A stretch of DNA of 64,000 nucleotides, taken from NCBI GenBank assembly GCA_022711715.1, contig JAKLEC010000001.1:112860-176859 (forward strand). Reading direction: 5' to 3'. Both the position numbers and the translations under genes were made by a program. The stretch comes from Acidobacteriota bacterium. GTDB taxonomy: Bacteria; Acidobacteriota; Aminicenantia; UBA2199. Every line of letters starts with the position of its first letter. Positions within the stretch are counted from its first letter, which is position 1. Shown here in pieces: positions 10,400-61,028 of the stretch. Under the pieces are notes generated by a model that did not search any database, was not told the origin of the DNA, and saw only the letters and a program-made list of their open reading frames with translations.

Positions 10400-12720
<2,321 letters not shown>

Positions 12721-12742
12721 GCGCGCGCGCCCTTTCACGACC

Positions 12743-13309: not shown

Positions 13310-13318
13310 GGAGATATC

Positions 13319-14584
<1,266 letters not shown>

Positions 14585-14599
14585 GTCGAGATCAGCGAC

Positions 14600-14784
14600 C
14601 TATCGTGACGCGTAACGCGTGACGCGTGACGCGGAACAGCCTGAGCCTGATCACCAAAGAGTGCAGCCATCAAATCAAAGAGGGTAATTCTGCAGATAAT
14701 TTTTCAGGAAACTTTATAGATTACAAGAATAGATCTTCCTTTTGCTGCTACTTGTCACGCGTCACGCGTTACGCGTCACGATAG
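14600..14784. repeat. Perfect 31-bp inverted repeat of GCGTRAC heptamers enclosing a 123-nt AT-rich insert
   Basis: 14600-14630 ctatcgtgacgcgtaacgcgtgacgcgtgac is the exact reverse complement of 14754-14784. The right arm contains the stop of CDS 14776-15951. Confidence 0.95.
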
Positions 14785-18069: not shown

Positions 18070-18123
18070 GGCGTTCTTGTAACAGAAAAGAAGGCCTGGG
18101 TCAATCGCAGGGCTTTCAGGAAA

Positions 18124-18214
18124 GTGATAGTGGTAGTGATAGTGATAGTAACAGCATCAACGGCAATTTGTGTTAGTGTTTGTGTTAGGAACAGCAATAA
18201 GAGAGCAGCTCTTT
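18124..18214. repeat. GTGRTA array - AACAGCA junction - GTGTTN array - GGAACAGCAATAAG core
   Basis: gtgata gtggta gtgata gtgata (18124-18150). gtgtta gtgttt gtgtta gg (18170-18189). Confidence 0.85.
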
Positions 18215-18231
18215 CCGAAACTAGTAGGACT

Positions 18232-18513
18232 AAAGCACCAAGTTCCAAGCATCAAATTCCAAATAAACGCCAAGCACCAATGACCAAATAACCAAAACCA
18301 AGAAAAGTGATTGTGATAGTGTTAGTGTTTGTTAGTGCACTCAAACGATTTCTAATGGAATTATGAGATCAATAGAATGTATTTATGACCGAAACTCAAT
18401 TCATCTAAAGGCAAATTGAAGAGCCCTTTACATTGTTCTAAAGAGGATTTCGTTGCGGGTTTTTCCTAACACTATCACTAACACCATCACTTTCTTTGGT
18501 GCTTGGTGCTTGG
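18232..18513. repeat. Nested hairpin: CACCAAG-type and GTGWTA-type arms around an AT-rich insert of about 125 nt
   Basis: Outer arms caccaagttccaagc...gccaagcaccaa (18236-18305) versus ctttggtgcttggtgcttgg (18493-18513). Inner arms gtgattgtgatagtgttagtgtttgttagtg (18307-18337) versus cctaacactatcactaacaccatcac (18465-18490). Confidence 0.8.
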
Positions 18514-19305: not shown

Positions 19306-19357
19306 ACCTAAGTGTTCGTGTTAGTGGTAGTGTTAGTAGAGGGCAATAGCAAATCTC
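19306..19357. repeat. GTGTTN/GTGGTA array plus GGGCAATAGCAAAT core-like junction
   Basis: cctaa gtgttc gtgtta gtggta gtgtta gtag agggcaatagcaaatctc. Confidence 0.75.
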
Positions 19358-19461
19358 TTTTTTTACAAACCCGGATTCATCGACACATTGAATCTCAATA
19401 TGGATTTTTTTGCTATTTCCTTTGCCGTGCATCGTTCATAAAAGGTATTTTACTTTTGCTT

Positions 19462-19700
19462 CACCATACGCCGTATGCCGTACGCCGTGCGCCAAGGGCA
19501 TTTTCCTCTTTCATCACCGTATGCCGTATGCCGTACGCCCAGGGCATTTTCCTCTTTCATCACCGTACGCCGTATGCCGTACGCCCAGGGCATTTTCCTC
19601 TTTCTTCACCGTACGCCGTATGCCGTACACCGTGCGCCCAGGGCATTTTCCTCTTTCTTCACCGTACGCCGTATGCCGTACGCCGTGCGCCCAGCTCTCC
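19462..19700. repeat. Tandem repeat, 4.5 copies of a 46/53-bp unit (GCCGTAY heptamers + CAGGGCATTTTCCTCTTTCWT)
   Basis: Copies at 19462-19514 (53 nt), 19515-19560 (46), 19561-19606 (46), 19607-19659 (53) and 19660-~19700 (partial). The length difference is exactly one heptamer. Confidence 0.92.
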
Positions 19701-29078: not shown

Positions 29079-30284
29079 ATGAAGATACTGGTCATCAATT
29101 GCGGGAGTTCGTCGATCAAGTTCCAGCTGCTCAACATGGAAACGGGGCAGGTCCTGGCCAAGGGCCTGCTGGAGCGCATCGCCATCCCCGGCTCGGTGCT
29201 GAACTACTACCAGGGCGAGACCAAGCACGTCGTCAACCGCAACGTGGCCAATCACGAGGAGGGAGTGCAGCTCATCGTCAGCCTGCTCACCGACCCCGCC
29301 AAGGGCGTCATCCGCGACAAGAGCGAGATCTTCGCCATCGGCCACCGCGTGGTCCACGCCGGCGAGAAGTTCAACGGCACCGTACCCATCACCCCGGCCG
29401 TGCTGGCCGCGCTCAAGGAGTGCATCCCGCTGGCGCCGCTGCACAACCCGCCCAACATCACCGGCATCGAGGCCTGCCAGAAGATCCTGCCCGGCATTCC
29501 CATGGCCGGCACTTTCGACACCGCCTTCCACCAGACCATGCCGGAGAAGGCCTACATATACCCCCTGCCCTACGAGTACTACCGCGAGCACAAGATCCGC
29601 CGCTACGGCTTCCACGGCACCTCGCACTTCTACGTGGCCAAGCAGGGGGCCAAGGCCATGGGCCGCAGGCTGGAGGAGCTGAAGATCATCACCTGCCACC
29701 TGGGAAACGGCTCGTCGATGGCCGCCATTCGCAACGGCGTCTCGGTCGACACCTCGATGGGCTACACGCCGCTGGAGGGGCTGCCCATGGGCACGCGCTG
29801 CGGCGACCTCGACCCGGCCATCCCGCTGGTGCTGCAGCGCACGCTCGGGCTGAGCGGCGAGCAGGTCGACGCCGTGCTCAACCGCAAGAGCGGCATGCTG
29901 GGCATCTCCGGCGTCTCCTCCGACATGCGCGACATCAACGACCAGGCCGCCGCCGGCCATGCCCAGGCCCGGCTGGCGCTGGAGATCTTCGCCTACCGCA
30001 TCAAGAAGTACATCGGCGCGTACATCGCCGCCATGAACGGCGCGGACCTGGTCATCTTCACCGCCGGCATCGGCGAGCGCGGCCGCAGGGAACGCGAGCT
30101 GATCCTGAGCGACATGGAGTTCCTGGGCATCGAGTTCGACGCCGCGGCCAACCATGAGGCCTTCGGCAGGCTGGGAACCATCTCCAAGCCCGGCTCGCGC
30201 GTCCGCGTCATGGTCGTGCCCACCAACGAGGAGCTGGAGATCGCCGAGCAGACGCTGAAGGTCATTCAAAACAACAAGAAATAG
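29079..30284 (+). CDS. ackA: Acetate kinase
   Basis: MKILVINCGSSSIKFQL N-terminus and full-length AckA similarity. TAG stop is the first unit of a (TAGTGA)n array. Confidence 0.97.
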   Translation: MKILVINCGSSSIKFQLLNMETGQVLAKGLLERIAIPGSVLNYYQGETKHVVNRNVANHEEGVQLIVSLLTDPAKGVIRDKSEIFAIGHRVVHAGEKFNGTVPITPAVLAALKECIPLAPLHNPPNITGIEACQKILPGIPMAGTFDTAFHQTMPEKAYIYPLPYEYYREHKIRRYGFHGTSHFYVAKQGAKAMGRRLEELKIITCHLGNGSSMAAIRNGVSVDTSMGYTPLEGLPMGTRCGDLDPAIPLVLQRTLGLSGEQVDAVLNRKSGMLGISGVSSDMRDINDQAAAGHAQARLALEIFAYRIKKYIGAYIAAMNGADLVIFTAGIGERGRRERELILSDMEFLGIEFDAAANHEAFGRLGTISKPGSRVRVMVVPTNEELEIAEQTLKVIQNNKK

Positions 30285-30400
30285 TGATAGTGATAGTGTT
30301 AGTGTTAGGAACAGCAATAGCAGAACTTTTTTCATCCTGACACGTTTCGGATCAGGGGCTTTCACTTTTACCTTTTTCCTTTTACCTTTTGCCTTTTGCC
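30282..30400. repeat. (TAGTGA)n / GTGTTA array - GGAACAGCAATAG core - CTTTTNC heptamer array
   Basis: The array starts with the ackA stop codon. cttttac ctttttc cttttac cttttgc cttttgc at 30361-30400. Confidence 0.85.
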
Positions 30401-30482
30401 CGATGCGGTCACGAAGCCCCGGAGGCTATTCAATCCCCGACCGCGGGGCAATGACGCCCCACGGGCCATTCAGTGTAAATAA

Positions 30483-30678
30483 GCTCGGCGTACGGCTGAC
30501 GGCATACGGCAACAGCACGTCTGCGATAGATAGCGCTGCGCAACTAGTGACGGACAAATTACCTCAGCGTATGGCTTTGACAATCTTGGATTGAAAAACT
30601 CATCGAAATTCAGGATTGCGCAGCAATGTCCCACTTTGGCTTTACCGTACGCCGTATGCCGTACGCCGTATGCCAAGC
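30483..30678. repeat. GCCGTAY-type hairpin element (filled form, insert of about 120 nt)
   Basis: Left arm gctcggcgtacggctgacggcatacggcaacagc. Right arm ggctttaccgtacgccgtatgccgtacgccgtatgccaagc. Inner 9-bp inverted repeat gctgcgcaa (30534) / ttgcgcagc (30616). Confidence 0.85.
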
Positions 30679-30711: not shown

Positions 30712-30740
30712 TTGCCAGAACCCTCCCGTATTGCTATAAT
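30712..30740 (+). promoter_or_regulatory. Sigma70-type promoter TTGCCA-17-(TGc)TATAAT for the small-ORF/kinase/bEBP/rluB operon
   Basis: Near-consensus -35 box, extended -10 and 17-nt spacer. Confidence 0.65.
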
Positions 30741-30779: not shown

Positions 30780-31061
30780 ATGAAAAAGGTGTTCCTGGTT
30801 CTCCTGCTCGCCCTGCTGCTGGCTCCCCCCCCCTTCCAGGCCACGGCCCAGGAGGCCAATCCCGACGGCGCCTCGCTGCGCACCATCCCCCCGGCCGGGA
30901 GGGCCGAGAGCTATCCCGACAGCGAGGACGACATCTTTTCCAGCTCGTTCGAGCGCGAGATGCTGACCCGCCGCTTCTTCCAGAAGACCCTGCCGCCGCT
31001 CAAGCCCCGGGAGAAGGTGGCCTGGGCCTTCCGCACCTCCCGGGCCAGCATCCTGTTATGA
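30780..31061 (+). CDS. Small secreted protein (93 aa), hypothetical
   Basis: Signal peptide MKKVFLVLLLALLLAPPPFQATAQE. ATGA overlap with the sensor kinase start. Strong sigma70 promoter upstream. Confidence 0.6.
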   Translation: MKKVFLVLLLALLLAPPPFQATAQEANPDGASLRTIPPAGRAESYPDSEDDIFSSSFEREMLTRRFFQKTLPPLKPREKVAWAFRTSRASILL

Positions 31062-33858
31062 AGCCCCCGCTGCTGCGGCGCCTGGCCGCCGCCGTCCCCG
31101 ACGCCGCCCGCCAGTACATCTGGCACTTCATGTTCGCAGCCTTCATCCTGCTCAGCCTGGCCAACATCTTCCAGAAACTGAAGTGGAGCTCGGCCACCGA
31201 CCACATCGCCTGGGAGCCGGGCCCCCAAGGGCTGGTCTGCCGCTCGGCCCCGGCCGGCGGCCAGGTCCGCCCCGGCGACATCCTGCTGGCCGTCAACAAG
31301 TACCAGGTGGGCGGCCGCATCGACCTGCTGCGCGCCATCGCCGGCCGCAACTACTGCCGCTACGAGATCGAGCGCGACGGCATCCTCAAGAACGTCGGTG
31401 TCGACATCGACCCGGTGTTCACCCCCTTCTCCTATTACATCCTGGTCTTCGTCGGCATCCTGTCCGTGCTGCTCACCCTGGGCATCCTCAACGTATACGT
31501 GCGCCAGGCGACGCTGTTCCCGCCGCCGCAGGTGTTCTTCGTCCTCAGCCTGACCCTGTCGGGGTTCCTGATCTTCTCCCCCACCGGCGATTTCGGCGCC
31601 AGCGACTACCTGTTCACCGTTCTGGACGCCGCCTGCTTCGCCCTCTTCCCGGCCGTGCTGCTGCACTATGCGCTGCAGTACCCGCTGCGCGCCCGCGGCC
31701 TCAAGCGGCTCAACTCGCGGCTGCGCGACCTGCTGATCTACCTGACGCCGCTGGCGCTGCTGGCCTTCAACGGCTACTTCGTCCTGCACAACCTGCTGGC
31801 GCCCGACGCCGAGGTCCTGACCACGACCATCAACCACTTCCGCTCCCTGGGCCAGAAGTACTTCGCCGTCTACGTGCTGCTGGCCTGGGCGCGCATCGGC
31901 CACTCCTCGCTCAGCCTGGTCCTGAAGAAGCGCCAGAAGCGCTACCTCGTCCCCCTGGCCGGCATCTCGCTGAGCTTCGTCTCGCTGCTGCTGCTTAACT
32001 TCACCCGCCAGGCCCCGGAAGCGGCCCCCGGTCCGCTCGTCTACCTGAGCATGATCTTCCTGCCCTTCCTGCCGCTGAGCCTGGTGTACTTCCTCTCGCC
32101 GCGGCGGGTGACCGACATCGAGAACATCATCAAGAAGACGCTCTCGATCTCCTCGCTGTTCCTGTTCATCTTCGGCACCTACCTGTTCCTGGGCCTGAAC
32201 ATCGGCCAGAACAAGCTGCTGGGCATCTTCTGGTCGCTGGCGGCCATCCTCATGGCCGGCCTGCTGTTCAAGCCCCTGGAAGGGACGCTGCAGCGCGTCT
32301 TCGAGCGGCTGTTCTACCGCGAGACCTTCAACTTCAAGCGCAAGCTGAAGGAATTGGAGGGCTCGATCAGCGCCCAGCGCGACCTCTCTTCGCTGTCGCA
32401 GAACTTCCTGGAGATCATCGGCCGCGGCTTCCAGCTGCAGGCCGCCTCGCTGCTGGTCCCCTACCGCAACAACCTGTTCTATTCGCTGCCCGGCCGCCGG
32501 CGGTTCTTTCTGACCCGCAGCTTCCTCGACGCCCTGCAAAGCCGCGACCACCTGGTGTTCCTCTCCGAGCAGGAGTTCGCCACCAAGTTCCCCGGCGACC
32601 AGGCGGCCATGCCCGCCGAGAAGCTGTTCCAGTTCCAGCCGCTGCGCATCGGCGAGCGCCTGGTCGGCGTCGTGGCCATGGGCCGCAAGACCGACCACTC
32701 CTACCTGACGGTCGAGGACTGGGACCTGATGGCCAGCATCGCCTCGCCCCTGGCGCTGTCGGTGGAGAACGCCTTCCTCTACTCGCGCCTGGAGGGGCAG
32801 CTGGCCGAACTCAACCAGCTCAAGGAGTTCAACGAGAACATCATCGAGAACATCAACCTGGGCATCCTGGTCGTCTCGCGGCTGAACCTGGTGCAGACCT
32901 GGAACACCTTCATGGAGGAGCGCTGGGGCATCCCGCGCGCCAAGGCGCTGCGCAAGCGGGCCCCGCAGCTGCTGGGCCGCGAGCTGTGGGAGCGGCTGCA
33001 GCCCGGCCAGCCGGGCACGCACACGCTGCGCAACGTCAAGGTCCCCATCGGCGAGGCCGAGACCTTCTTCGACCTCTATGTCTCGCCGCTCAAGGACGAG
33101 TCGGGCAGCATCTCCGGCCGCATCTTCGTCTTCGAGGACGTGACCGAGAAGAACCGCATCCAGAACCAGCTGGTCACCTCGGAAAAGATGGCCTCGCTGG
33201 GCCTGCTGTCGGCGGGCATCGCCCACGAGATCAACACGCCGCTGACCGGCATCTCCTCCTACTGCCAGTTCCTGCTCGACAACCCCGGCGGCCGCGACAA
33301 TCCCGAGCTGATCGCCAAGATGCAGGACCAGGTGCTGCGCGCCAACAAGATCGTGCGCACCCTGCTCGACTTCTCGCGCCAGAAGGGGCAGCAGCCCGGG
33401 CCCGTCGACCTGAACCGCGTCCTCGACGAGAGCCTGGCCCTGGTCGAGCACAAGCTGAAGAAGAAGAACATCCGCGTGCGCCGCGAGGCCGAGTTCCGCG
33501 GCCGCTTCGCCGGCTTCCCCACCCGGCTGCAGCAGCTGTTCATCAACCTGTTCATCAACGCCATCGACGCCATCGACGGCGAAGGCTGGATCTCCGTCGG
33601 CGGCGAGGAGAGCGCCGAGCAGGTAACGGTGCGTTTCAAGGACAGCGGCCGCGGCATCGCCCCGCGTGACCTGGAGCGCATCTTCGACCCGTTCTTCACC
33701 ACCAAGGATGTCGGCCAGGGGACCGGCCTGGGGCTGGCCATCGTCTACAACATCGTCAAGGAGCACTACGGCGAGATCGAGGCGCACAGCCGCGTCGGCC
33801 GCGGCACCACCTTCATCATCACCTTCCCCCTGCAGAGCCCGCTGAGGAGCATGAACCT

Positions 33859-33862
<4 letters not shown>
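31058..33862 (+). CDS. Sensor histidine kinase: PDZ-like domain, polytopic membrane region, GAF, PAS, HisKA, HATPase
   Basis: PDZ-like GQVRPGDILLAVN. About 8 TM helices. H-box AHEINTPL. G-box GTGLGLAI. Confidence 0.9.
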
Positions 33863-35204
<1,342 letters not shown>

Positions 35205-35208
<4 letters not shown>

Positions 35209-36080
35209 GGGAAATCAAGCTGCAGAGGTTCCTCCAGGAATGCGGCGTGGCCAGCCGCCGCGACATCCGCCGCTGGATCCACGAGGGGCGCTTCCAGGTG
35301 GCGGGCCGGGCCGTGACCGACCCCAACCACCCGGTGCGCCATCCCGGCGACGAGGTGCGTCTCGACGGCCGGCCGCTGCGGCGGGCGCCGCAGGCGCGGA
35401 GCTACTTCATCCTCAACAAGCCGGCCGGGGTCGTCTCCACCCTGTCCGATCCCGAGGGGCGGCCGACAGTCGCCGCCCTCATCCGCCGCATCCGCGAGCG
35501 CGTCTTCCCGGTGGGGCGCCTCGACTTCCACTCCGACGGCCTGATGCTGCTGACCAACGACGGCGAGCTGGCCAACTTCATCCTCTCGGCGCGCAACGGC
35601 GTGCCCAAGACCTACCTGCTCAAGATCAAGGGCGAGCTGTCCGAGGCCGAGCGCGGCAAGCTGGAGCGCGGCTTCGTCCTGGAGGGCGAGCGTCTCAACC
35701 CCTTCGTCATCGAGCCGCAGAGCCGCACCAGCGCCGGCAACTCCTGGCTGCGCGTGACCATCACCGAGGGCAAAAAGCATATCCTGCGCAAGGCCTTCCA
35801 GTTCTCGGGCCACCCGGTGGAAAAGCTGCGCCGCGTGGCCATCGGCGGCATCACCCTGGGCAAGCTGCCGCCGGGCGAGTGGCGCGAGCTGCGCGAGGAA
35901 GAGGTCGAGTCGTTCAAGCGCCAGTACCGCTTCAACGCACCGGCCTCAGGGAAGAAACAGGGAAGAATGAGGGAAGACAGAGGGGCTGGACTAGAAAACC
36001 TCTCGGTCCGTCGAGGTTCCACGTACCACGTACCACGTACCAAGTTGAAGACAAAGGCCTTTCCGCAGAGAACGAAGTGA
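35205..36080 (+). CDS. rluB: Pseudouridine synthase (RsuA/RluB family) with about 50-aa repeat-encoded C-terminal tail
   Basis: S4 domain and the catalytic GRLDFHSDGLMLLTNDG motif. The last about 150 nt read through a GGGAAG-rich repeat element. Confidence 0.85.
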
Positions 36081-36137
36081 GAAAGAAGTTCTGAAAATGC
36101 CTTTCCCACTCTCTCTTCCCTCTGTCTTCCCTTGAGA
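35947..36137. repeat. GGGAAG-type element with inserted CACGTAC x3 array; overlaps the rluB 3' end
   Basis: cagggaagaaacagggaagaatgagggaagacagagggg ... ccacgtaccacgtaccacgtacc (36019-36043) ... gtgagaaagaagttctgaaaatgcctttcccactctctcttccctctgtcttcccttgaga. Confidence 0.85.
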
Positions 36138-36190: not shown

Positions 36191-37093
36191 ATGCGCCATA
36201 AAATCACGATCGGCGTTTTGGCACTGCTTCTGGGCATCCTGACCGCTCCCGCCCGCCTTCATGCCTCGGCCCCGCGCAACATCATCGTCTACTTCGAGTT
36301 CCTCGACAACGCCAACGGCATCGAGGAGGCCGTCTCCTTCCTGTTCGGGCGCATGCTGCGGCCCGGCGACCAGCTGATCGTGCAGTCGCCGGCCAGGACC
36401 TACGGCTTCTCGCCGGCCAGCCTGGGACGCTCCAAGGCCGAGCTGGCCGTCTCCCTGCAGGGCCGGCTGCGCGGCGACATTTCCCGCTCGGGCCAGGGCT
36501 ATAAGCAGGTCCTCCTGGACCTGGACGCGGCGGCGCTGGAGATCGCCGAGCTCGCCTACCCGACCGGCGTGGTGGACGCCAACAAGGACCTGGGCGAGAT
36601 GTTCATCCTCTACCGCCAGGGCCTGGCCAACCTGCGGCAGCTGCGCCAGGTGAGCGCCGCCTCGCTGCGCCGGCTCAGCGGCGCCTTCCAGGGCCAAAAG
36701 GGTGAAAACCACGTCATCGTCCTCTTCGAGCGCGAGTTCCGCCCCATCCCGCGCCGCGAGGCGCTGAACGCGCTGGCCGACATGCCCGCCTTCGCCATGA
36801 AGGCCAACGAGATGTTCTCCGCGACCGAGCTTGACCCGCCCTTTGACGTGCCAGCGCTGGCCGCTTTCTTCCGCGGCGTGCCGCTGACCCTGCACTTCGT
36901 CTACGTCACCTCCAAGAACACGACGATCGCCGGCAACCGCTTTGAGAGTTCGGGCGACATCTACTCCGCCTTCAGCAAGCTCGCCGAAGCCACCGGCGGC
37001 GTATGCGCGGCGACGGCAGAACCAAGGGACGGGCTGAAAGCGGTATTGAAGGCCTGGCAGGGCTCAAAATTGAGCGGATCCAGGGAAGAATGA
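36191..37093 (+). CDS. Secreted alpha/beta protein, tandem paralog 1 (VWA-like fold suspected, no MIDAS)
   Basis: GAGGAG SD 5 nt before ATG 36191. Signal peptide. Shares PRNIIV(Y/F)FE, GDQLI.QSP, QKGENH.IVLFEREFRP.PRREALN, VPLTLHFVYVT and ATGGVC with the two downstream genes. Confidence 0.8.
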   Translation: MRHKITIGVLALLLGILTAPARLHASAPRNIIVYFEFLDNANGIEEAVSFLFGRMLRPGDQLIVQSPARTYGFSPASLGRSKAELAVSLQGRLRGDISRSGQGYKQVLLDLDAAALEIAELAYPTGVVDANKDLGEMFILYRQGLANLRQLRQVSAASLRRLSGAFQGQKGENHVIVLFEREFRPIPRREALNALADMPAFAMKANEMFSATELDPPFDVPALAAFFRGVPLTLHFVYVTSKNTTIAGNRFESSGDIYSAFSKLAEATGGVCAATAEPRDGLKAVLKAWQGSKLSGSREE

Positions 37094-37210
37094 GGGAAGA
37101 CAGAGGGAAAGGCAGAGGGAAAATAAAGTGAGAAAGAGGTTCTGAAAAGGCCTTTCCCACTCTCTCTTCCCTTTCTCCTCCCTCACTCTTCCCTCTGTCT
37201 TCCCTTGAGA
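37081..37210. repeat. GGGAAG-type hairpin element (compact form)
   Basis: Purine arm 37081-37137, loop ttctgaaaagg, pyrimidine arm 37150-37210. Contains the TGA stop of paralog 1 and the -35 box of paralog 2. Confidence 0.9.
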
Positions 37211-46066: not shown

Positions 46067-46294
46067 GATATCGTGACGCGTAACGCGTGACAAGTAACCG
46101 CGTCAGGACGAGCGCTCGTGATTCGTCATTCGTAATTCGTGATTCGCAACAGCAATGGAACGGTTCATGCTATTCGAACACTCTCTCGTCATTGATTCGC
46201 TTCAGGGCTTTCCTAACACGAACACAAACACGAACACATAGTTAGATCGTTCGTTCTTTTTGGCTTTCCTACCACTATCACTACCACTACCACT
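46067..46294. repeat. Composite mosaic: GCGTRAC array - linker - CGTRATT array - CAACAGCAATGG core - CACGAA/CACAAA array - TAYCAC array
   Basis: Colinear with 3016-3153. The final taccac array continues into the conserved 3' flank of the sulfatase-like gene. Confidence 0.85.
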
Positions 46295-51213: not shown

Positions 51214-51261
51214 TATCCGATTATTCCACAGGATCGCCCCGGCGGCAAGCGCAAGAAGAAA

Positions 51262-51457
51262 GTGATAGTGATAGTGTTTGTGTTAGTAACAGCAAATCGA
51301 CGAACTCTTATCTACCGGCACCTGGCGACGGGCTCTTCACTTTACCCTTTTTACTTTTGCCTTTTGCCTTTCTGAGTGTCAGTATCAGCAGAAAACGGAA
51401 CGAACTGAAGCAAGGGCAACACCTTGCTTTTCACTTTTCACCTTTCACTTTTCACTG
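51262..51457. repeat. Array mosaic: GTGATA/GTGTTN - AACAGCAAAT core - CTTTTNC array - GTGTCAG units - TTTTCAC array
   Basis: Read directly from the sequence. cctttctgagtgtcagtatcagcag is homologous to 54541-54568. Confidence 0.85.
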
Positions 51458-51462
51458 AAGAT

Positions 51463-51492
51463 AAAAAAAGGGGGGCACTTTCGTGCCCCCCC
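51463..51492 (-). terminator. Intrinsic terminator after TonB-dependent receptor 1
   Basis: Minus strand reads GGGGGGCAC-GAAA-GTGCCCCCC followed by U7. Confidence 0.9.
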
Positions 51493-51520: not shown

Positions 51521-54358
51521 TCAGTTGAACTCGATGCGGGCGCCGAGCTGGAACATGCGCGGATCGTTGATGGTCAGCATGCGCTCGAACGAATACAGCG
51601 GGTTGCTGGAGTTGGCCCAGACCGAGGTGGCCACGCCCTGGTTGAAGACGTTGAAGCAGTCGGCGAAGGCGGCCAGGGTCACGTTCTTGATCTTGAAGGC
51701 CTTTTCCAGGCGTAGGTCGAGCCGCACCGCGTTGGGCAGGCGGCGGGCGCCGCGTTCCTCGGCGTTGATGGTCGTGCCGGAACGGCTCTGGGTGACGCTC
51801 ACGCCCAGGTAGCGGCTGGTGACGACGCGGTTGTAGGTGCCGCCACTCAGGAAGCGGAAGTAGCCGCTCAGGTTGATGCCCAGCGGGCCGGCCCACATGC
51901 CCTGCACCTTGAACTGGTGGCGGGCGTCGAGGTCCAGCGTGCCGTAGGCGTTGACGTGGGCGTTGGGATCGCCGAACAGGCCGGAGGTGCCCAGGGAGGC
52001 GTTGCCGCGGCCCTGCGAGATGAGGCCCTTGCCCTCGCCGTAGACGTAGGAGGTGTTCAGCGCCCAGCCGTGGCTGAAGCGCTTGTTGAGGGTGAGTTCC
52101 ACGCCGGTGTAATCGCGCTCGGCCCCCGGCGGGTTGACGATGTAGATCTCGCTGGCGGCGGTGTTCTTCTTGCTGTAGAAGGTGACGGTCTTGCCGTCGA
52201 AGGGATCGACGGTGGACTTGGCGATCCAGTTCTTGCTCCAGTCGAGCTCGCCGCTGGACATCAGCTTGTCGATGTCCAGCTGGGCGGCGTCGACCTGGTG
52301 GACCAGCCTGCGGTCCCACTTGCGGATGAAGCGGGCGCCGGCCGACCAGTCGGTGAAGAGCTCGCGCTCCAGGCCGACCGTCAGCTCATCGGTATAGGGT
52401 GCCTTGAGGTCGTAATTCTTGTAGCCCACCTTGGTGGAGGCGGGGACGGACCAGACCGACTCGGTGCCGGGGATCTGGGTGCCGTCGGGGTTCAGGAAGA
52501 CGATCCAGCCGACCCAGCCGTTGGGATGGGCGATGTTGATCCAGCCCGTCTGGTTGGCCATGGTGTAGCGCGACCAAGAGGCCTTGGCCAGCGTCTTGTT
52601 GTCGCCGGTTACGTCGTAGATGAGGCCGAAGCGCGGGGCCAGCGTGGTCCAGGAGAGCCCCTTGATCGGGTCGGTGATGGAGCGGTTAACGGTCAGGTAG
52701 CTGAGGGCGCCGGGGAGCTGGAAGGCGCCTTCGCCGCCGCCCTGCTTGGGCCAGGTCAGCGAGTTGTACTCCAGGCGCAGGCCGAGGTTCAGGGTCAGGT
52801 GGCGGTTGACGCGCCAGGTGTCCTGGATGAAGCCGAAGTAGTCATCCATGTTGTCCTTGCGGTCGAAGCCGTCGCCGGCCAGCTGCAGGCCGTAGTAGTA
52901 GTAGCCATCTGTGCCGAGCATGGCGTTGTAGTGGCAGTTGGAGACGGGGTCGGCCTTGCCGTAGACCATCCAGCCGACGCGGGCCAGCTGCGCCTCGCCG
53001 CCGACCTTCAGCTCGTGCGTGCCCATGAAGTCGTCAATGAAGGTGGTGGCGTCGACGTTGAAGTTGTAGCGGTCGCGGCCGTTGTGGTCCTGGGTGCGCC
53101 AGGCACCGCCGTTGTCGAGGTAGTTGTAGGTGTACAGGTCGTAGTAGAAGGGGGCGTCGAGGTTGGAATCGAGGTTCATCTGGAACTGGCTGATGCCGAC
53201 CTTGAAGTTGGCGTACATGTTCTCGCCGAAGTAGCGGTTCCAGTTGGCATTGATCACGTGGGTGGGGGTGGTCTGCTTGACGGTGTTGTTCTCGGTGTGC
53301 CAGCGGTCGGCGTTGCGGTTGTTGTTCAGGCGGTCGGAGTAGTTGTAGGAGAGGACGAACTTGTTCTTCTGGTTGGGCTGGAAGGTCAGCTTGATGTAGG
53401 GCAGGGGCTGGGTGACCTTGATGGTGGTCTTGGCGTTGGGCTTGTTGTAGGGGAAGCCGATCGCGTAGTTCTGCACCTGCTTGTAGGTGGCGGAGGCGAA
53501 GAACCACAGCTTGTCCTTGATGATCGGGCCGCCGATGGAGAAGGCGGGCTCGAACTCGAGGTGGTTGCCCGAGTAGCCCTCGTTCTCCAGCACGGTGCCC
53601 TTGCGGTTGTCGCCCACCAGGCTCTCGTGGTTCAGGTAGAAGGAGGCGGCGCCGGTGAAGCGGTTGCCGCCCGACTTGGTGACCACGTTGACCATGGCGC
53701 CGCGCACCGAGCCGTACTCGGCCGAGAGGCCGCCGGTCTGGACCGAGATCTCGTCCATGATGTCCAAGCCGAAGGTGACGTTGGTGACGCCGGTGGCCGG
53801 GTCGCCCAGGTTCACGCCGTCCAGGTTATAGGAGTTGTCCATGGTGGCCGAGCCGTGGGCGGAGTCGCCGGTCATGCCCGGGGCCATGTTGACGAAGTTG
53901 GCCAGGTTGCGGGGGGCGGGCAGCGACTTCAGGAACTGCACGTCGAAGTTGGCCGCGCGCGTCTGGCGCTGCGTGTCCACCGTGGGGCTCTGGCCGGTGA
54001 CCACGATCGCTTCCTGGATCGCTTCCTGCTTGATGGTGGCGTTGACCGTGAAGGTCTGCAGCGCCGCCACCTTGATGTCCTTGCGGATCACGGTGCGGAA
54101 GCCTTCCAGCTGGAAGGTGATTTCGTAGACGCCGACGGGCAGGTTGGCGAAGCGGTAGACGCCGTTTTCGTTGGTGACGGCGGTCATCTTGCCGATCACC
54201 AGGGCCGGCGAAGAGATGACTACGGTCACGCCGGGAACGGATACGCCGTCTTCCATGGAGACGACACCCATCAGCGTGCCGGTCTGGCTGGACTGCCCGT
54301 ACCCGACGGTCATGACCGCGAGCAGGAGCATCAGCCCGATGCTGAGCTTTTTCATCAT
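51521..54358 (-). CDS. TonB-dependent receptor with N-terminal CarboxypepD_reg-like domain
   Basis: Signal peptide. GTLMGVV...GVSVPGVTVV cap domain. Plug and beta-barrel. AGGAGG SD. Sigma54 promoter upstream and intrinsic terminator downstream. Confidence 0.9.
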   Translation of the reverse strand: MMKKLSIGLMLLLAVMTVGYGQSSQTGTLMGVVSMEDGVSVPGVTVVISSPALVIGKMTAVTNENGVYRFANLPVGVYEITFQLEGFRTVIRKDIKVAALQTFTVNATIKQEAIQEAIVVTGQSPTVDTQRQTRAANFDVQFLKSLPAPRNLANFVNMAPGMTGDSAHGSATMDNSYNLDGVNLGDPATGVTNVTFGLDIMDEISVQTGGLSAEYGSVRGAMVNVVTKSGGNRFTGAASFYLNHESLVGDNRKGTVLENEGYSGNHLEFEPAFSIGGPIIKDKLWFFASATYKQVQNYAIGFPYNKPNAKTTIKVTQPLPYIKLTFQPNQKNKFVLSYNYSDRLNNNRNADRWHTENNTVKQTTPTHVINANWNRYFGENMYANFKVGISQFQMNLDSNLDAPFYYDLYTYNYLDNGGAWRTQDHNGRDRYNFNVDATTFIDDFMGTHELKVGGEAQLARVGWMVYGKADPVSNCHYNAMLGTDGYYYYGLQLAGDGFDRKDNMDDYFGFIQDTWRVNRHLTLNLGLRLEYNSLTWPKQGGGEGAFQLPGALSYLTVNRSITDPIKGLSWTTLAPRFGLIYDVTGDNKTLAKASWSRYTMANQTGWINIAHPNGWVGWIVFLNPDGTQIPGTESVWSVPASTKVGYKNYDLKAPYTDELTVGLERELFTDWSAGARFIRKWDRRLVHQVDAAQLDIDKLMSSGELDWSKNWIAKSTVDPFDGKTVTFYSKKNTAASEIYIVNPPGAERDYTGVELTLNKRFSHGWALNTSYVYGEGKGLISQGRGNASLGTSGLFGDPNAHVNAYGTLDLDARHQFKVQGMWAGPLGINLSGYFRFLSGGTYNRVVTSRYLGVSVTQSRSGTTINAEERGARRLPNAVRLDLRLEKAFKIKNVTLAAFADCFNVFNQGVATSVWANSSNPLYSFERMLTINDPRMFQLGARIEFN

Positions 54359-54394
54359 ATACCTCCTAAAAATTTTTAATACCGCTTAATATAA

Positions 54395-54410
54395 TGCAAT
54401 TTTCATGCCA
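54395..54410 (-). promoter_or_regulatory. Sigma54 promoter TGGCAT-GAAAA-TTGCA
   Basis: Minus strand reads TGGCATGAAAATTGCA, with exact consensus blocks and spacing. The -12 element lies about 37 nt upstream of ATG 54358, and AGGAGG is in the leader. Confidence 0.8.
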
Positions 54411-54449
54411 AATCGAAAGGCCCGCGTATCAGGCAATTCGGCAACGGCT

Positions 54450-54465
54450 ATTCAAATATTTGAAT
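54450..54465. promoter_or_regulatory. Perfect 16-bp palindrome ATTCAAATATTTGAAT upstream of the sigma54 promoter (candidate activator or IHF site)
   Basis: Centre lies about 55 nt upstream of the -24 element. Flanked by CCCGCG...CGCGGG. Confidence 0.35.
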
Positions 54466-54540
54466 CCTCGCGGGCTTTTAGTCCAATTTTCTGAATGCTG
54501 TTTTTGTTAGAATTTTAACTAATTATGCCCGACCGGCGGT

Positions 54541-54889
54541 CTTTCTGAGTGTCAGTGTCCGTGTCAGCAAGAAAGAACTTTCAGCAACCTATGTGTTCGT
54601 GTTAGTGTTTGTGTTAGTGTTAGGAAAGCCAGGATCATGAACACCGTCGAGATATAAGTGGTAGTGATAGTGATAGTGGTAGGAGCGGCATGAACCGATC
54701 TAATGCCGTTGCGGATCACGAATTACGAATCACAATGGGTTATTTGCTGTTCCTCGTCACGCGTCACGCGTCACGATTGTTTTGGACAGATCGGGTGTCA
54801 GTGATAGTGTTAGGAACAGCAATCAACGAAATCCTATCAAGAACCGAGCAAAGGGCTCTTCACTTTTACCTTTTTCCTTTTACCTTTCG
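54541..54889. repeat. Super-mosaic containing seven array types in about 350 bp
   Basis: GTGTCMG (54541-54570), GTGTTN (54593-54624), GTGRTA (54658-54683), small hairpin cggcat...atgccg, CACGAAT (54713-54732), GTCACGC (54755-54777), GTGATA/GTGTTA + GGAACAGCAAT (54796-54827), CTTTTNC (54858-54889). Confidence 0.88.
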
Positions 54890-54912
54890 ATAGATTTTTT
54901 TACGTAAGGCAC

Positions 54913-54941
54913 AAAAAAAAGGGGGCACGTTCGTGCCCCCC
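54913..54941 (-). terminator. Intrinsic terminator after TonB-dependent receptor 2
   Basis: Minus strand reads GGGGGCAC-GAAC-GTGCCCCC followed by U8. Homologous to 51463-51492. Confidence 0.9.
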
Positions 54942-54965
54942 GGGAAAAAGAAGCGGGTCCTTGGG

Positions 54966-57815
54966 TCAGTTGAACTCGATGCGCGCCCCCAGCTGGAACA
55001 TGCGCGGGGTATTGATGGTCAGCATGCGCTCGAATTCGTAGGCGGGGTTGCTGGAGTTGGTCCAGACCGTCGTGGCGATGCCCTGGTTGAAGACGTTGAA
55101 GCAGTCGGCGAAGGCGGCCAGGGTGACATTCTTGATCTTGAAGGCCTTCTCCAGGCGCAGGTCGAGCTGCACCGTGTCGGGCAGCCGGCGCGATCCGCGC
55201 TCTTCGGCGTTGATGACGGCCCCGCTGCGGCTCTGGGAAACGGACACGCCCAGGTAGCGGGAGGTGATGGTGCGGGTGTAGGTGCCGCCGCTCAGGAAGC
55301 GGAAGTAGCCGCTCAGGTTGATGCCCAGCGGGCCGGCCCACACGCCCTGCATCTTGAACTGGTGGCGGGAATCAAGGTCCAGCGTGCCGTAGGCGTTGAC
55401 GTGGGCGTTGGGATCCTGGAAGAGGGAGGAGGTGCCCAGCGCCGAGCCCACCCGGCCCTGGGAGATGAGACCCTCGCTCTTGCCGTAGACGTAGGAGGTG
55501 TTCAGCGCCCAGCCGTGGCTGAAGCGCTTGTTGAGGGTGAGCTCCAGGCCGGAGAAGTCGCGCTCGGCGCCCGGCGGGTTGACGATGTGGCATTCCTTGG
55601 CCACGGTGTCGATCTTGCTGTAGAAGGTGACGGTCTTGCCGTCGAAGGGATCGGTCGCGGTCTTGGCGATCCAGTTCTTGCTCCAGTCGAGCTCGCCGCT
55701 GGCCATCAGCTTGTCCATGTCGAGCTGGGCGGCGTCGACCATGTGCATCAGGTTGCGGTCCCACTTGCGGATGAAACGGGCGCCGGCCGACCAGTCGGTG
55801 AAGATCTCGCGCTCGAGGCCGAGGGTCAGCTCGTCGGTGTAGGGCGCCGAGAGCTTGTAATCCTCGTATCCCACCCTGGTGCTGGAAGGGAGCCACAGGG
55901 GCCTCTCGGTATTGGGAATCGGCGTGCCGTCAGGCTCCAGGTCGATGAAGTAGGTGATCCAGCCGTTGGGATGGGCCTCGTTGACCCAGCCCACCTGGTT
56001 GGGCATGGTGTAGCGCGACCAGGAGACCTTGGCCAGCGTCTTGTTGTCGCCGGTCACGTCGTAGATGAGGCCGAGGCGCGGAGCCAGCGTGGTCCAGGAG
56101 AGCCCCTTGATCGGCTCGGTGACCGTGCGGTTGACGGTCAGGCCGCTCAGTGCGCCGGGGAGGGTGATGGCGCCGCCGTCGCCCTGCTTGGGCCAGGTCA
56201 GCGAGTTGTACTCCAGGCGCAGGCCGAGGTTCAGGGTCAGGTGGCGGTTGACGCGCCAGGTGTCCTGGACGAAGGCGAAGTAGTCGTCCATGTTGTCCTT
56301 GCGGTTAAAGCCGTCGCCCTGCAGGACGAGGCCCAAATAGTAGATCCCGCTCTCGCCGAGCATGCCGTTGTAGTGGCAGCCGGTTTTCGGGTCGGCCTTG
56401 CCGTAGACCAGCCAGCCGACGCGGGCCAGTTGCGCCTCGCCGCCGACCTTCAGCTCGTGCGTGCCCATGAAGTCGTCGATGAAGGTGGTGGCGTCGACGT
56501 TGACGTTGTAGCGGTCGCGCGAGTTGTGGTCCTGGGTGCGCCAGTTGCCGCCGTTGTCGAGGTAGTTGTAGGTGTACAGGTCGTAGTAGAAGGGGGCATC
56601 GAGATTGGAATCCAGGTTCATGTCAAAGCGGCTGACGCCGACCTTGAAGTTAACGTACATGTTCTCGCCGAAGTAGCGGTTCCAGTTGGCGTTGATCACG
56701 TGGGTGGGGGTGGTCTGCTTGCTGGTGTTGTTCTCGGTGTGGTAGCGGTCGGCGAAGCGGTTGTTATTGAGCTGGTCGGAATAGTTGTACGAGAGGGTGA
56801 ACTTGTTCTTCTGGTTGGGCTGGAAGGTGAACTTGATGTAGGGCAGCGGCTGGGTGATCTTGATGGCCGCCGGGTCGGGCTTGTTGTAGGGAAAGCCGCT
56901 GACGAAGCGCTGGGTGTCCTTGTAGGTGGCGGAGGCGAAAAACCACAGCTTGTCCTTGACGACCGGGCCGCCGATGGAGAAGGAGGGCTCGAACTGCCGG
57001 TGGTTGCCGGTCAGGCCTTCGTCCTCCAGCACGGTGCCCTTGCGGTTGTTGCCCACCAGGCTCTCGTGGTTGAAATAGAAGGAGGCGGCGCCGCTGACCC
57101 GGTTGCCGCCCGACTTGGTGACCACGTTGACCATGGCGCCGCGCACCGAGCCGTACTCGGCCGAGAGGCCGCCGGTCTGCACCGAGATTTCGTCCATGAT
57201 GTCCAGGCCGAAGGTGATGTTCTGCAGCCCGGTGGCCGGGTCGCCCAGGTTGACGCCGTCGAGGTTGACCGAGTTGTCCATGGTGGCCGAGCCGGAGGCG
57301 GAGGAGCCGCCGTTGACGTCGTCGGCGATCAGTCCCGGCGCCATGTTGATGAAGTTGGCCAGGTTGCGCGGGGCGGGCAGCGACTTCAGGAACTGCACGT
57401 CGAAGTTGGCCGCGCGTGTCTGCCGCTGGGTGTCGACCGTGGGGCTCTGGCCGGTGACCACGATCGCTTCCTTGATCGCCTCCTGGCGGATGGTGGCGTT
57501 GACCGTAAAGGTCTGCAGGGCGGCCACGCGGACGTCCTTGCGCACGTAGGGCCGGAAGCCCTCCAGCTGGAAGTCGAGCTCATAGACGCCGGGCGGCAGG
57601 TTGGCGAAGCGATAGACGCCGTTCTCGTTGGTCACGGCGCTCATCTTGCCGATCACCAGGGCCGGCGAGGCCGCGGTCACCGTGACGCCGGGGATGGAGA
57701 CGCCGTCCTCCATGGTGACGACGCCCATCAGCGTGCCGGTCTGGCTGGACTGCCCGTGCACCGCGGCGAAGGCCGCGAGCAGGAACAGCAGCGTGAAGAA
57801 TGATTTTTTGATCAT
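54966..57815 (-). CDS. TonB-dependent receptor with N-terminal CarboxypepD_reg-like domain (tandem paralog)
   Basis: Colinear with 51521-54358. ATG 57815 (GGAGG SD, signal peptide MIKKSFFTLLFLLAAFAAVHG) is preferred over 57845, which coincides with the predicted sigma54 transcription start. Confidence 0.9.
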   Translation of the reverse strand: MIKKSFFTLLFLLAAFAAVHGQSSQTGTLMGVVTMEDGVSIPGVTVTAASPALVIGKMSAVTNENGVYRFANLPPGVYELDFQLEGFRPYVRKDVRVAALQTFTVNATIRQEAIKEAIVVTGQSPTVDTQRQTRAANFDVQFLKSLPAPRNLANFINMAPGLIADDVNGGSSASGSATMDNSVNLDGVNLGDPATGLQNITFGLDIMDEISVQTGGLSAEYGSVRGAMVNVVTKSGGNRVSGAASFYFNHESLVGNNRKGTVLEDEGLTGNHRQFEPSFSIGGPVVKDKLWFFASATYKDTQRFVSGFPYNKPDPAAIKITQPLPYIKFTFQPNQKNKFTLSYNYSDQLNNNRFADRYHTENNTSKQTTPTHVINANWNRYFGENMYVNFKVGVSRFDMNLDSNLDAPFYYDLYTYNYLDNGGNWRTQDHNSRDRYNVNVDATTFIDDFMGTHELKVGGEAQLARVGWLVYGKADPKTGCHYNGMLGESGIYYLGLVLQGDGFNRKDNMDDYFAFVQDTWRVNRHLTLNLGLRLEYNSLTWPKQGDGGAITLPGALSGLTVNRTVTEPIKGLSWTTLAPRLGLIYDVTGDNKTLAKVSWSRYTMPNQVGWVNEAHPNGWITYFIDLEPDGTPIPNTERPLWLPSSTRVGYEDYKLSAPYTDELTLGLEREIFTDWSAGARFIRKWDRNLMHMVDAAQLDMDKLMASGELDWSKNWIAKTATDPFDGKTVTFYSKIDTVAKECHIVNPPGAERDFSGLELTLNKRFSHGWALNTSYVYGKSEGLISQGRVGSALGTSSLFQDPNAHVNAYGTLDLDSRHQFKMQGVWAGPLGINLSGYFRFLSGGTYTRTITSRYLGVSVSQSRSGAVINAEERGSRRLPDTVQLDLRLEKAFKIKNVTLAAFADCFNVFNQGIATTVWTNSSNPAYEFERMLTINTPRMFQLGARIEFN

Positions 57816-57854
57816 GTGAACCTCCATGCGCTCATTTTCATCCATGGAGGGAAT

Positions 57855-57870
57855 AGCAATAATGATGCCA
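57855..57870 (-). promoter_or_regulatory. Sigma54 promoter TGGCAT-CATTA-TTGCT
   Basis: Minus strand reads TGGCATCATTATTGCT with consensus spacing. The -12 element lies about 40 nt upstream of ATG 57815. Confidence 0.8.
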
Positions 57871-57983
57871 AGCGAATTTCCTTTATTATAGGCGATCTCC
57901 GATACCGTTTTTTTGGATATTCACTCCCCGTGTCCGGATCGCCCGGCAAATTCCGTTTTATTGAACGGCGAGGCAGCGAGCTA

Positions 57984-58104
57984 TTTGTGTTAGTGTTAGT
58001 GTTTGTGTTAGGAAAGCCAAACAGCGAACTTGTGTTCGTGTGTGTTAGGAAAGCCTTGGGACGAGCTAACTGAATTAGTGATAGTGGTAGTGATCGTGAT
58101 AGTG
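57984..58104. repeat. GTGTTN arrays (x2, each ending GTTAGGAAAGCC) plus a GTGRTA array
   Basis: tttgtgttagtgttagtgtttgtgttaggaaagcc...gtgttcgtgtgtgttaggaaagcc...gtgatagtggtagtgatcgtgatagtg. Confidence 0.85.
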
Positions 58105-58166
58105 AAAAAAAATAGCAAGAGAATTCGTTAGGTTCAGGACCTCCGGTTCACGAAAAATGGAAGAAG

Positions 58167-58194
58167 AAAAAAAAGGCGGCCTCAGCGGGCCGCC
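58167..58194 (-). terminator. Intrinsic terminator about 230 nt downstream of the prolyl oligopeptidase stop
   Basis: Minus strand reads GGCGGCC-CGCUGA-GGCCGCC followed by U8. The intervening 3' region is filled with repeat arrays. Confidence 0.7.
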
Positions 58195-58219
58195 CATTTC
58201 ATATTACTATGCTCGCGTT

Positions 58220-58416
58220 CTCATCACGCGTTACACGTCACGCAGGCTCGTCATTGCAGTTCGTTTTGCGGCAGCGGTACACCGAGCCCTGCTTTTCTTA
58301 CCGTACACCGTATGCCGCGGCGGTCCCGTCAGGGCCGCCGGCCGTATGCCAAACTCAGGCAAGTTCTCTTTTCTTGCCGTACGCCGTACGCCGTATACCG
58401 TATGCCGTATGCCGAG
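58220..58416. repeat. GTCACGC-like and GCCGTAY arrays with a GC hairpin, in the prolyl oligopeptidase 3' region
   Basis: catcacgcgttacacgtcacgc; ccgtacaccgtatgccg; hairpin cggcggtcccgtcagggccgccg; gccgtacgccgtacgccgtataccgtatgccgtatgccgag. Confidence 0.8.
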
Positions 58417-60641: not shown

Positions 60642-61028
60642 GGCGTAAGGCTCAAGGCGCAAGGTACAGGGCAACTGCACTGAATGGTGCAGATCGTAAA
60701 AGGGCAGTTACCCTATGCCCTGCGCCCTACGCCGTATGCCGAGCCGGGCGGCCTCGGGCCGCTATTCGCGCCCGATTGGCGCAAGGCTCAAGGCGCAAGG
60801 TGCAAGGGAACTGCGCTGAATGCTACAGTTCGTGAAAGGGCAGTAACCCTATGTCGTACGCCGTATGCCGAGCTGGGCGGCCTTCGGCCGCTATTCGCGC
60901 CCGATTGGCGCAAGGCTCAAGGCGTAAGGTATAGGGTAAAGGCACTGAATGGTTCAGATCGGGAAAGGGCCGCTACCCTACGCCCTATGCCGTACGCCTT
61001 ATGCCGAGCTGGGCGGCCTTCGGCCGCC

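Follow-up and report, generated by a model that had tools for sequence, protein, structure and literature searches.

In a 64 kb stretch of DNA from an Acidobacteriota bacterium of the lineage Aminicenantia (contig JAKLEC010000001.1; ‘the window’ below is this whole stretch), two tandem genes for TonB-dependent receptors are each preceded by an element of the sigma-54 (-24/-12) type. We consider it highly probable that each receptor gene is a monocistronic unit with a sigma-54 promoter, an upstream enhancer and an intrinsic terminator, and that this is a class-wide design. The genes and promoters, in coordinates of the window, are as follows.

51521-54358, minus strand: receptor 1 coding sequence, 945 aa (CarboxypepD_reg, OMP_b-brl_4 and TonB_dep_Rec_b-barrel domains); Shine-Dalgarno sequence AGGAGG at 54362-54367
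54395-54410, minus strand: predicted sigma-54 promoter P1 of receptor 1, TGGCATGAAAATTGCA; GG at 54409-54408, GC at 54397-54396, predicted transcription start at about 54385
54966-57815, minus strand: receptor 2 coding sequence, 949 aa from the conserved ATG; Shine-Dalgarno sequence GGAGG at 57821-57825
57855-57870, minus strand: predicted sigma-54 promoter P2 of receptor 2, TGGCATCATTATTGCT; predicted transcription start at about 57845

Predicted sigma-54 promoters upstream of both receptor genes

An earlier note on this DNA had proposed a sigma-54 promoter for each receptor, and both 16-mers lie where it had put them on the minus strand (54410-54395 and 57870-57855) and match the sigma-54 consensus. 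The pattern TGGCAY-N5-TTGCW occurs exactly twice in the 64 kb, as P1 and P2, against an average of 0.16 occurrences in shuffled sequence (1/100 shuffles reached 2); all 10 specified positions are matched at both sites, and the GG and GC doublets are exactly 10 nt apart. A scan of the window with a position weight matrix, of the kind that the note had recommended for the genome, gave 34.3 bits for P1 and 29.0 bits for P2, far above the next best site (15.0 bits, lacking the GC). The matrix, built from 52 non-redundant related receptor promoters, reads (A/g)n(T)TGGCA(Y)(g/a/c)(w)(w)(T)(w)TTGC(W), the canonical sigma-54 consensus.

The distances to the start codons are also as proper as had been claimed: the C of the -12 TTGC lies 38 nt from the ATG of receptor 1 (54396 to 54358) and 41 nt from that of receptor 2 (57856 to 57815), with AGGAGG (54367-54362) and GGAGG (57825-57821), respectively, in between. 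The receptor 2 start used here, ATG 57815, is conserved, as opposed to the ATG at 57845 given by the ORF (open reading frame) finder, which coincides with the predicted transcription start and lacks conservation among orthologs. No sigma-70-like promoter was found on the coding strand upstream of receptor 1 or 2, and near-consensus sigma-70 promoters are in use elsewhere in the same genome. P1 and P2 do not represent independent events, because the genes are tandem paralogs that are 82% identical. A third sigma-54-like match, TGGCATGGCAGTTGC (745-759, plus strand), found 5′ of an ORF without Pfam match (820-1305), scores less than 12 bits by the family matrix and lies inside a (TGCCGTA)n microrepeat; it was treated as probably due to chance.

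Conservation of the promoter element among Aminicenantes receptor genes

The closest named homologs of both receptors, and of the activator discussed below, are proteins of Candidatus Aminicenantes, and a comparative set of 75 genome loci encoding receptor relatives (910 kb in total) was therefore searched for the element. Exact TGGCA-N6-TTGC occurred 65 times, compared with approximately 7 occurrences expected under uniform composition, and about 50 of these 65 sites lay 10-350 nt upstream of a receptor ORF on the same strand. The receptors concerned include homologs merely 40-50% identical, as well as extra paralogs within the same loci. A 9/9 match within 400 nt upstream was present for 38/63 receptor ORFs, against 6/342 other ORFs (odds ratio 85, p = 3e-30), the receptor count being an underestimate, as some ORF starts are over-extended across the promoter. 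When orthologous upstream regions are aligned, their flanks prove divergent, and no non-coding block is invariant other than the dyads described below, TTGGCA..TTGC and the Shine-Dalgarno sequence; TTGGCA..TTGC is invariant in seven orthologous P1-type promoters, and the P2 element in eight. Conservation in homologs this divergent therefore excludes chance or mere inheritance via tandem duplication.

It might still be argued that TGGCA-N6-TTGC is no promoter, the matches being duplicated chance occurrences or the site of another factor, with transcription arising from unrecognised sigma-70 or ECF (extracytoplasmic function) promoters. The paralogy of the two genes would favour this, as would the outcome for rpoN, which counts against sigma-54 control: tblastn with an E. 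coli RpoN query gave no match in approximately 1 Mb of genome fragments, a miss that is expected with fragments. We nevertheless judge such an explanation to be very improbable, for the element persists amid diverged flanks upstream of receptors just 40-50% identical, in strict orientation and with exact GG-N10-GC spacing, activator genes adjoin such promoters at loci L029, L035 and L047, neither receptor has a sigma-70-like site upstream, and the approximately 39 window ORFs scanned include no member of an ECF sigma or anti-sigma family. The presence of rpoN itself may be presumed from the conserved activators with GAFTGA or GAYTGA loops. The sigma-54 reading is thus supported by conservation, and we infer from these patterns that both receptor genes depend on sigma-54. 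As read from these comparisons, the -24/-12 element together with the dyad is predicted to be the way in which promoters of CarboxypepD_reg-type receptor genes are usually built in Aminicenantes as a whole.

Exact sigma-54 motifs were also seen before other genes. At L029, two genes that lie downstream of a sigma-54-driven receptor gene adjoining a kinase/activator pair, namely a tonB gene (TonB_C domain, 8945-9752) and a stand-alone receiver-domain gene (9906-10377), are each preceded by an exact sigma-54 promoter of their own. A motif at 1218 of L013 lies 5′ of a 432-aa ORF whose N-terminus is amino-acid dehydrogenase-like by eye only, and another, at 12367 of L023 (minus strand), lies 5′ of a sulfatase-TPR gene; these two cases suggest that the regulon may include substrate-processing enzymes.

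A conserved dyad with enhancer geometry

Upstream of each promoter lie sites of dyad symmetry.

54450-54465: proximal dyad of receptor 1, site B, ATTCAAATATTTGAAT; a 16-bp palindrome, centre at about -73 from the predicted start
54481-54496, minus strand: distal dyad of receptor 1, site A, ATTCAGAAAATTGGAC; centre at about -104, 31 bp from site B
57902-57918, minus strand: possible weak second dyad of receptor 2, site B′, ATCCAAAAAAACGGTAT; kept in the closest three promoters only
57950-57966, minus strand: degenerate dyad of receptor 2, site A′, GTTCAATAAAACGGAAT; core centre at about -114

The palindrome at 54450-54465 had been put forward as a candidate upstream activator site for receptor 1, and it belongs to a conserved pair whose position and phasing resemble those of an enhancer: all seven orthologous promoters retain sites A and B with centres 31-32 bp apart, B at -54/-55 and A at -85/-87 relative to the T of TGGCA. 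The accompanying statement that receptor 2 has no equivalent palindrome did not hold, since the degenerate dyad of site A′ (57966-57950) is kept in all eight orthologous promoters, in which its columns T.CA....A..GGA are invariant. Site B′ lies 48 bp from A′, which is not a whole number of helical turns.

An unbiased search for dyads (all 1024 palindromic 5-mer dyads at spacings of 0-8, from -170 to -5 in 52 non-redundant receptor promoters) returned ATTCA-N6-TGAAT, TTCAA-N4-TTGAA and TCCAA-N4-TTGGA, registers of one site, as its top dyads, in 24-26/52 promoters against 0.6-1.6 in shuffles. With T(T/C)CAA-N4-TTG(A/G)A required at ≥9/10 positions, 34/50 non-redundant receptor promoters had a site at -135 to -35, compared with 2/50 at -335 to -235, 3/50 at +25 to +125 and 1.0/50 in shuffles. 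Positions cluster at -95, -85, -74 and -54, and 24/50 promoters have paired dyads 19-22 or 30-33 bp apart, that is, two or three helical turns. Symmetry extends to the flanking bases (A on the left, T on the right), which played no part in site selection, and the spacer consists of A/T only; on these alignments the full site is a predicted 16-bp palindrome, ATYCAA-W4-TTGRAT (more loosely, ATYCAA-N4-TTGRAT). Upstream activator sites lie approximately 70-150 bp from the start, and the dyads near -73 and -104 (P1) and -114 (P2) fall within this range. Such paired, phased dyads would constitute classic enhancer geometry, from which activator binding may be inferred; the motif would be a newly defined enhancer within an apparently class-wide regulon design.

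Two features of the dyad tell against an activator site: it is A/T-rich, and its core TCAA-N4-TTG overlaps the consensus of IHF (integration host factor), WATCAA-N4-TTR. IHF sites of sigma-54 promoters, moreover, occupy a range that includes the position of site B, about -73. The dyads could then be IHF/HU-type bending sites, or sites of a repressor or co-regulator, with the true enhancer elsewhere. This appears unlikely to us, given that both half-sites and the unselected flanks are symmetrically conserved, pointing to a symmetric dimer, that the dyads are paired two or three turns apart and extend up to about -120, that ortholog alignments contain no other conserved block within 130 nt upstream, and that two dyads adjoin an orphan activator gene at L085.

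The combined arrangement was also looked for in metagenomes, with the pattern dyad-N58-84-TGGCAY-N5-TTGC. Around half of the 80 loci among the matches listed look like chance (AT-rich, no downstream ORF), the rough random expectation being approximately 100, and only matches with a recognisable downstream gene were used; on this basis at least 28 further receptor genes, of more distant subfamilies, have dyad and promoter.

One further element was noted in receptor-2-type promoters.

57880-57892, minus strand: (G/T)ATAAT box, 10-20 nt upstream of the -24 element

This box is kept in all eight receptor-2-type promoters and absent from those of receptor 1 type; it could be a Fur-like half-site, a bending site or an overlapping sigma-70 -10 element.

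The receptors and their transcription units

Receptor 2 has the same Pfam domains as receptor 1, namely an N-terminal CarboxypepD_reg domain, OMP_b-brl_4 and TonB_dep_Rec_b-barrel. The beta-barrel matches of the receptors (PF25183, 141-161 bits; PF00593, 36-42 bits against a cut-off of 27) identify a TonB-dependent transporter barrel. There was no match to Plug (PF07715) at E ≤ 0.001, and residues 120-235 or thereabouts are plug-like by eye only (ISVQTGGLSAEYGSVRGAMVNVVTKSGGN). With a CarboxypepD_reg domain at the N-terminus, and no sigma or anti-sigma family among the approximately 39 window ORFs scanned, the proteins do not fit the FecA type of surface-signalling receptor, and no SusD partner is present at the receptor genes. 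A scan of the whole window with Rfam gave no match, and hence no riboswitch or known RNA in the receptor leaders. Three intrinsic terminators delimit the units.

51469-51492, minus strand: intrinsic terminator after receptor 1
54920-54941, minus strand: intrinsic terminator after receptor 2, separating the two receptor transcription units
58174-58195, minus strand: intrinsic terminator 3′ of the prolyl oligopeptidase gene, insulating receptor 2 from upstream transcription

Each receptor gene thus ends in a strong terminator and a further one lies at 58195-58174, and the receptors are therefore separate monocistronic units.

Which activator serves the receptors

A single kinase/activator operon in the window provides a candidate regulator.

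30712-30740, plus strand: sigma-70-like promoter of the kinase/activator operon, TTGCCA-17-TATAAT (11/12)
31058-33862, plus strand: partner sensor kinase, 934 aa; PDZ - membrane region - GAF - PAS - HisKA - HATPase
33859-35208, plus strand: candidate activator, a response regulator with REC, sigma-54 AAA+ (GAYTGA) and HTH_8

The product of 33859-35208 had been singled out as the only NtrC-family regulator in the window, and by both Pfam and tblastn it is indeed the one sigma-54 activator present; REC, AAA+, lid and HTH_8 are all found (Sigma54_activat, E = 3e-65), which places it in the NtrC family. Its pairing with a PDZ/GAF/PAS kinase was likewise borne out, the PDZ match being weak in the window protein and clear in a collinear homolog. 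The operon runs from a small secreted ORF (30781-31059) through kinase and activator to rluX, with kinase and activator translationally coupled. Orthologs of the activator are 67-97% identical across Aminicenantes, making it more conserved than the receptors; the contact loop is GAFTGA in the more distant orthologs and GAYTGA in the window protein, the F-to-Y change being a tolerated variant. The activator reaches no NCBIfam cut-off of NtrC, AtoC, ZraR, PrsR or any other named equivalog (AtoC, 384 bits against a cut-off of 714; NtrC, 372 against 559; PrsR, 363 against 503), and its shortfall against the NtrC equivalog means that it is not NtrC. For the kinase, AtoS gave 253 bits against a cut-off of 646.

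That this activator, with its kinase (31058-35208), regulates the two receptors in trans is proposed here tentatively, at just short of an even chance; the link is circumstantial and plausible. Evidence for it comes from homologous kinase/activator operons with dyad and promoter directly upstream, of which three, on contigs L100, L120 and L156, were found among the matches listed. In L100 (29% G+C), two dyads (ATTCAATTTTTTGGAT and ATTCAAAAATTTGAAT, approximately 30 bp apart) and then TGGCATAAAATTTGCA stand directly before a kinase that is 33% identical to that of the window and collinear with it over 931 residues. In L120 and L156 (68% G+C), dyad and promoter precede genes for a GAF-PAS kinase and for an activator that shares 47% identity with that of the window, and the helix-turn-helix of the window activator is nearly the same as theirs (VQKRAAELLKLKPTTLHEIIKRL against VQKKAAEELQLKPSTLYELIKRL). 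Positive autoregulation would be the simplest reading of the module in this position, i.e. the activator family would recognise the dyad. L085 (3870-4245) has an orphan gene for a response-regulator activator (41% identical); downstream of it come two perfect GTTCAAAAAATTGAAC dyads and then a sigma-54 promoter, TGGCATcacgaTTGCA, a layout which again ties the dyad to an enhancer-binding protein.

Several observations weigh against the assignment. The window's own kinase/activator operon has neither sigma-54 element nor dyad and is preceded instead by the sigma-70-like promoter, so that autoregulation within the window was rejected. Synteny of receptor and activator is not conserved either: at L076 a block running from ackA to kinase-activator-rluX directly abuts rpoC-rpoB, and neither dyad nor sigma-54 promoter was found within 10 kb of the activator ortholog; at L077 no receptor is shown near the kinase-activator-rluX block. 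The block itself is conserved, but the 20 kb proximity of receptors and activator in the window is lineage-specific and is therefore not evidence. The activator at L085, despite lying beside the same dyad, differs from the window's in its helix-turn-helix, which makes helix-turn-helix similarity a weak guide to specificity. At L029, a GAF-PAS kinase and activator lie directly upstream of a receptor whose promoter has no dyad, and at L035 (5820-5860) and L047 the gene directly 5′ of the receptor encodes an FHA-GAF-AAA+-HTH activator. The L035 receptor has a sigma-54-like promoter, TGGCACAAAAAATGC, and the receptor promoters of both loci have a different perfect palindrome, TGTCTAAATATTAGACA, upstream, which points to a putative second activator/enhancer pair for the same gene family.

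These observations are also what would be expected if the sigma-54 promoters are real and the dyads are bound by some other enhancer-binding protein encoded elsewhere in the genome, which we regard as a substantial possibility, if somewhat short of a probable one. It draws on the unconserved proximity, on the lack of a dyad at the activator operon both in the window and in L076, on the L085 helix-turn-helix and on the at least two other activator types that adjoin Aminicenantes receptors. It has to contend with the presence of the module before operons homologous to the window pair in the three contigs, with the close match of the window helix-turn-helix to that of L120, and with the class-wide conservation that the window activator shares with the dyad. 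Receptors found beside different activators and motifs (L029, L035) imply that more than one activator serves the receptor family, and the general rule would appear to be sigma-54 for receptor genes, with several activators, of whose enhancers the ATYCAA dyad is the commonest.

The L085 locus has a further feature of its own, an intrinsic terminator approximately 90 nt after the sigma-54 promoter with no ORF between, which suggests a sigma-54-dependent small RNA. Pairing with Shine-Dalgarno sequences would be possible through a CCUCC stretch in the predicted transcript, and the layout resembles those of LuxO/Qrr and GlrR/GlmY.

A model for receptor expression

In the mechanism that we propose, sigma-54 RNA polymerase would bind the -24 GG/-12 GC element as a closed complex, and an NtrC-type enhancer-binding protein, the likeliest candidate being that at 33859-35208 and the alternative another activator encoded elsewhere in the genome, would bind the upstream ATYCAA-N4-TTGRAT dyads as dimers, with two sites at receptor 1 and the one conserved degenerate site at receptor 2. 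The activator would oligomerise on the phased dyads, loop to the promoter and open it by ATP hydrolysis. Transcripts would then start near 54385 and 57845, carry short leaders of approximately 26-29 nt with strong Shine-Dalgarno sequences, and stop at the intrinsic terminators. As for the signal, nutrient status or the state of periplasmic peptides may be presumed; a response to peptide or polymer-derived nutrients is suggested, speculatively, by the PDZ domain of the kinase and by the prolyl oligopeptidase and sulfatase-TPR genes nearby.

Genomic surroundings

The window is 66% G+C (approximately 95% at third codon positions) and includes the housekeeping genes tig-clpP-clpX-lon, rho and rpoC. 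Gene order on the minus strand is rpoC, prolyl oligopeptidase, receptor 2, receptor 1 and two sulfatase-TPR genes, and sulfatase-TPR genes often adjoin such receptors at other Aminicenantes loci. A block of approximately 25 kb (36100-61000) separates rluX from rpoC here, in contrast to L076 (compared over 11344-16291), where kinase-activator-rluX directly abuts rpoC-rpoB. It contains three unknown ORFs of approximately 300 aa, GWxTD-TPR proteins, a CarboxypepD_reg-TPR protein, three sulfatase-TPR genes, both receptors and the prolyl oligopeptidase.

Short tandem microrepeats with a period of 6, 7 or 11 are present in nearly all intergenic regions of the window, with units including AGTGAT, GTGTTA, CGTGACG, CCGTACG, CTTTTAC, TCGTAAT and AGGGAAGAAAG. 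Examples are given below.

689-789, 2025-2155, 3067-3215, 14604-14780, 18123-18513, 19311-19691, 30281-30674: microrepeat-bearing intergenic regions
35948-36132, 37082-37205, 46072-46294, 51261-51456, 54548-54887, 57987-58414, 60642-61027: further microrepeat-bearing intergenic regions

The repeats often occur as complementary pairs that give long imperfect hairpins, and 3′ of rpoC there are three tandem units of approximately 130 nt (folding z = -8.0 for the transcribed strand, -5.6 for the other). Similar repeats are found in related genomes (L002, L003), and their positions are not conserved; the hexamer and heptamer microrepeats were rejected as enhancer candidates on the ground that their position is not conserved among orthologs.

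Many records of ‘binchicken’ metagenome-assembled genomes (L001, L009, L011, L021 and others) are labelled ‘uncultured Clostridia’ or ‘Eubacteriales bacterium’. Their receptors are 45-89% identical to Aminicenantes proteins and their loci carry the same promoter module, and the taxonomic labels look wrong.

Comparison with known systems

The closest parallel is the enteric NtrB/NtrC-glnAp2 system, in which two dyad-symmetric enhancer sites approximately three helical turns apart lie roughly 70-140 bp upstream of a -24/-12 promoter. The spacing of the paired dyads is shared, as is a response-regulator activator with REC, AAA+ and Fis-type helix-turn-helix; the motif differs, however (TGCACC-N5-GGTGCA there, ATYCAA-N4-TTGRAT here), the targets here are outer-membrane receptors, and the kinase is a membrane PDZ-GAF-PAS protein. 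Among NCBIfam families, the best matches to the window pair are AtoS/AtoC, ZraS/ZraR and PrsK/PrsR (PEP-CTERM), which have its overall architecture, but the sensor part of the window kinase differs (PDZ and polytopic membrane region) and scores are far below the cut-offs.

Receptor genes are classically under Fur, ECF sigma/anti-sigma signalling, SusR or hybrid two-component systems. The Fur, FecI-FecR-FecA, SusR and hybrid two-component examples resemble the present case in the class of target gene and in induction that is presumably substrate-responsive, and differ from it in that none of their features was found here, with no ECF sigma or anti-sigma neighbour, SusD partner or sigma-70-like promoter, control being predicted to run through sigma-54 and an enhancer.

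Precedents for sigma-54 near TonB systems are sparse. In Methylobacillus flagellatus the lanthanide receptor Mfla_1253 adjoins the sigma-54-dependent regulator Mfla_1254, and control was suggested by the authors (PMC9988556); that is a single proteobacterial locus for which no enhancer motif was defined, whereas the Aminicenantes design is found repeatedly within an entire class. A computational survey of predicted sigma-54 regulons in many phyla has TonB (COG0810) enriched in Flavobacteriia, with no mention of Acidobacteriota, Aminicenantes or receptor genes (PMC12316311); the likeness lies in TonB machinery under sigma-54, as with the L029 tonB gene and its own sigma-54 promoter. No paper on sigma-54 control of receptor genes in Acidobacteriota or Aminicenantes was found in the literature. 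In kind, then, what is described is ordinary enhancer-dependent transcription, and what would be new is a class-wide regulon design on receptor genes with a newly defined, putative enhancer motif.

Implications for Aminicenantes

The Aminicenantes, anaerobes that abound in sediments and aquifers, are uncultured, and to our knowledge nothing is known of their gene regulation. In its most general form, the hypothesis would be that sigma-54 in this class is dedicated to essentially all CarboxypepD_reg-type transporters and to parts of the TonB machinery, mostly through one enhancer and one class-wide master two-component system, a conjecture that we hold to be possible and on the whole doubtful. 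Were it true, the PDZ domain of the master kinase may sense periplasmic peptides or protein C-termini, and the system would activate its own operon in some lineages and may also drive a small RNA.

Sigma-54 promoter, 16-bp dyad and candidate kinase/activator pair together amount to a testable cis-regulatory code for the main nutrient-uptake proteins of Aminicenantes. Such a code would allow regulons to be predicted straight from metagenomes, with pointers to co-induced transporters, and would supply a defined protein-DNA pair for in-vitro tests that need no cultivation. It would also widen the known scope of sigma-54 to receptor genes, which are usually assigned to Fur, ECF sigma factors or hybrid two-component systems.

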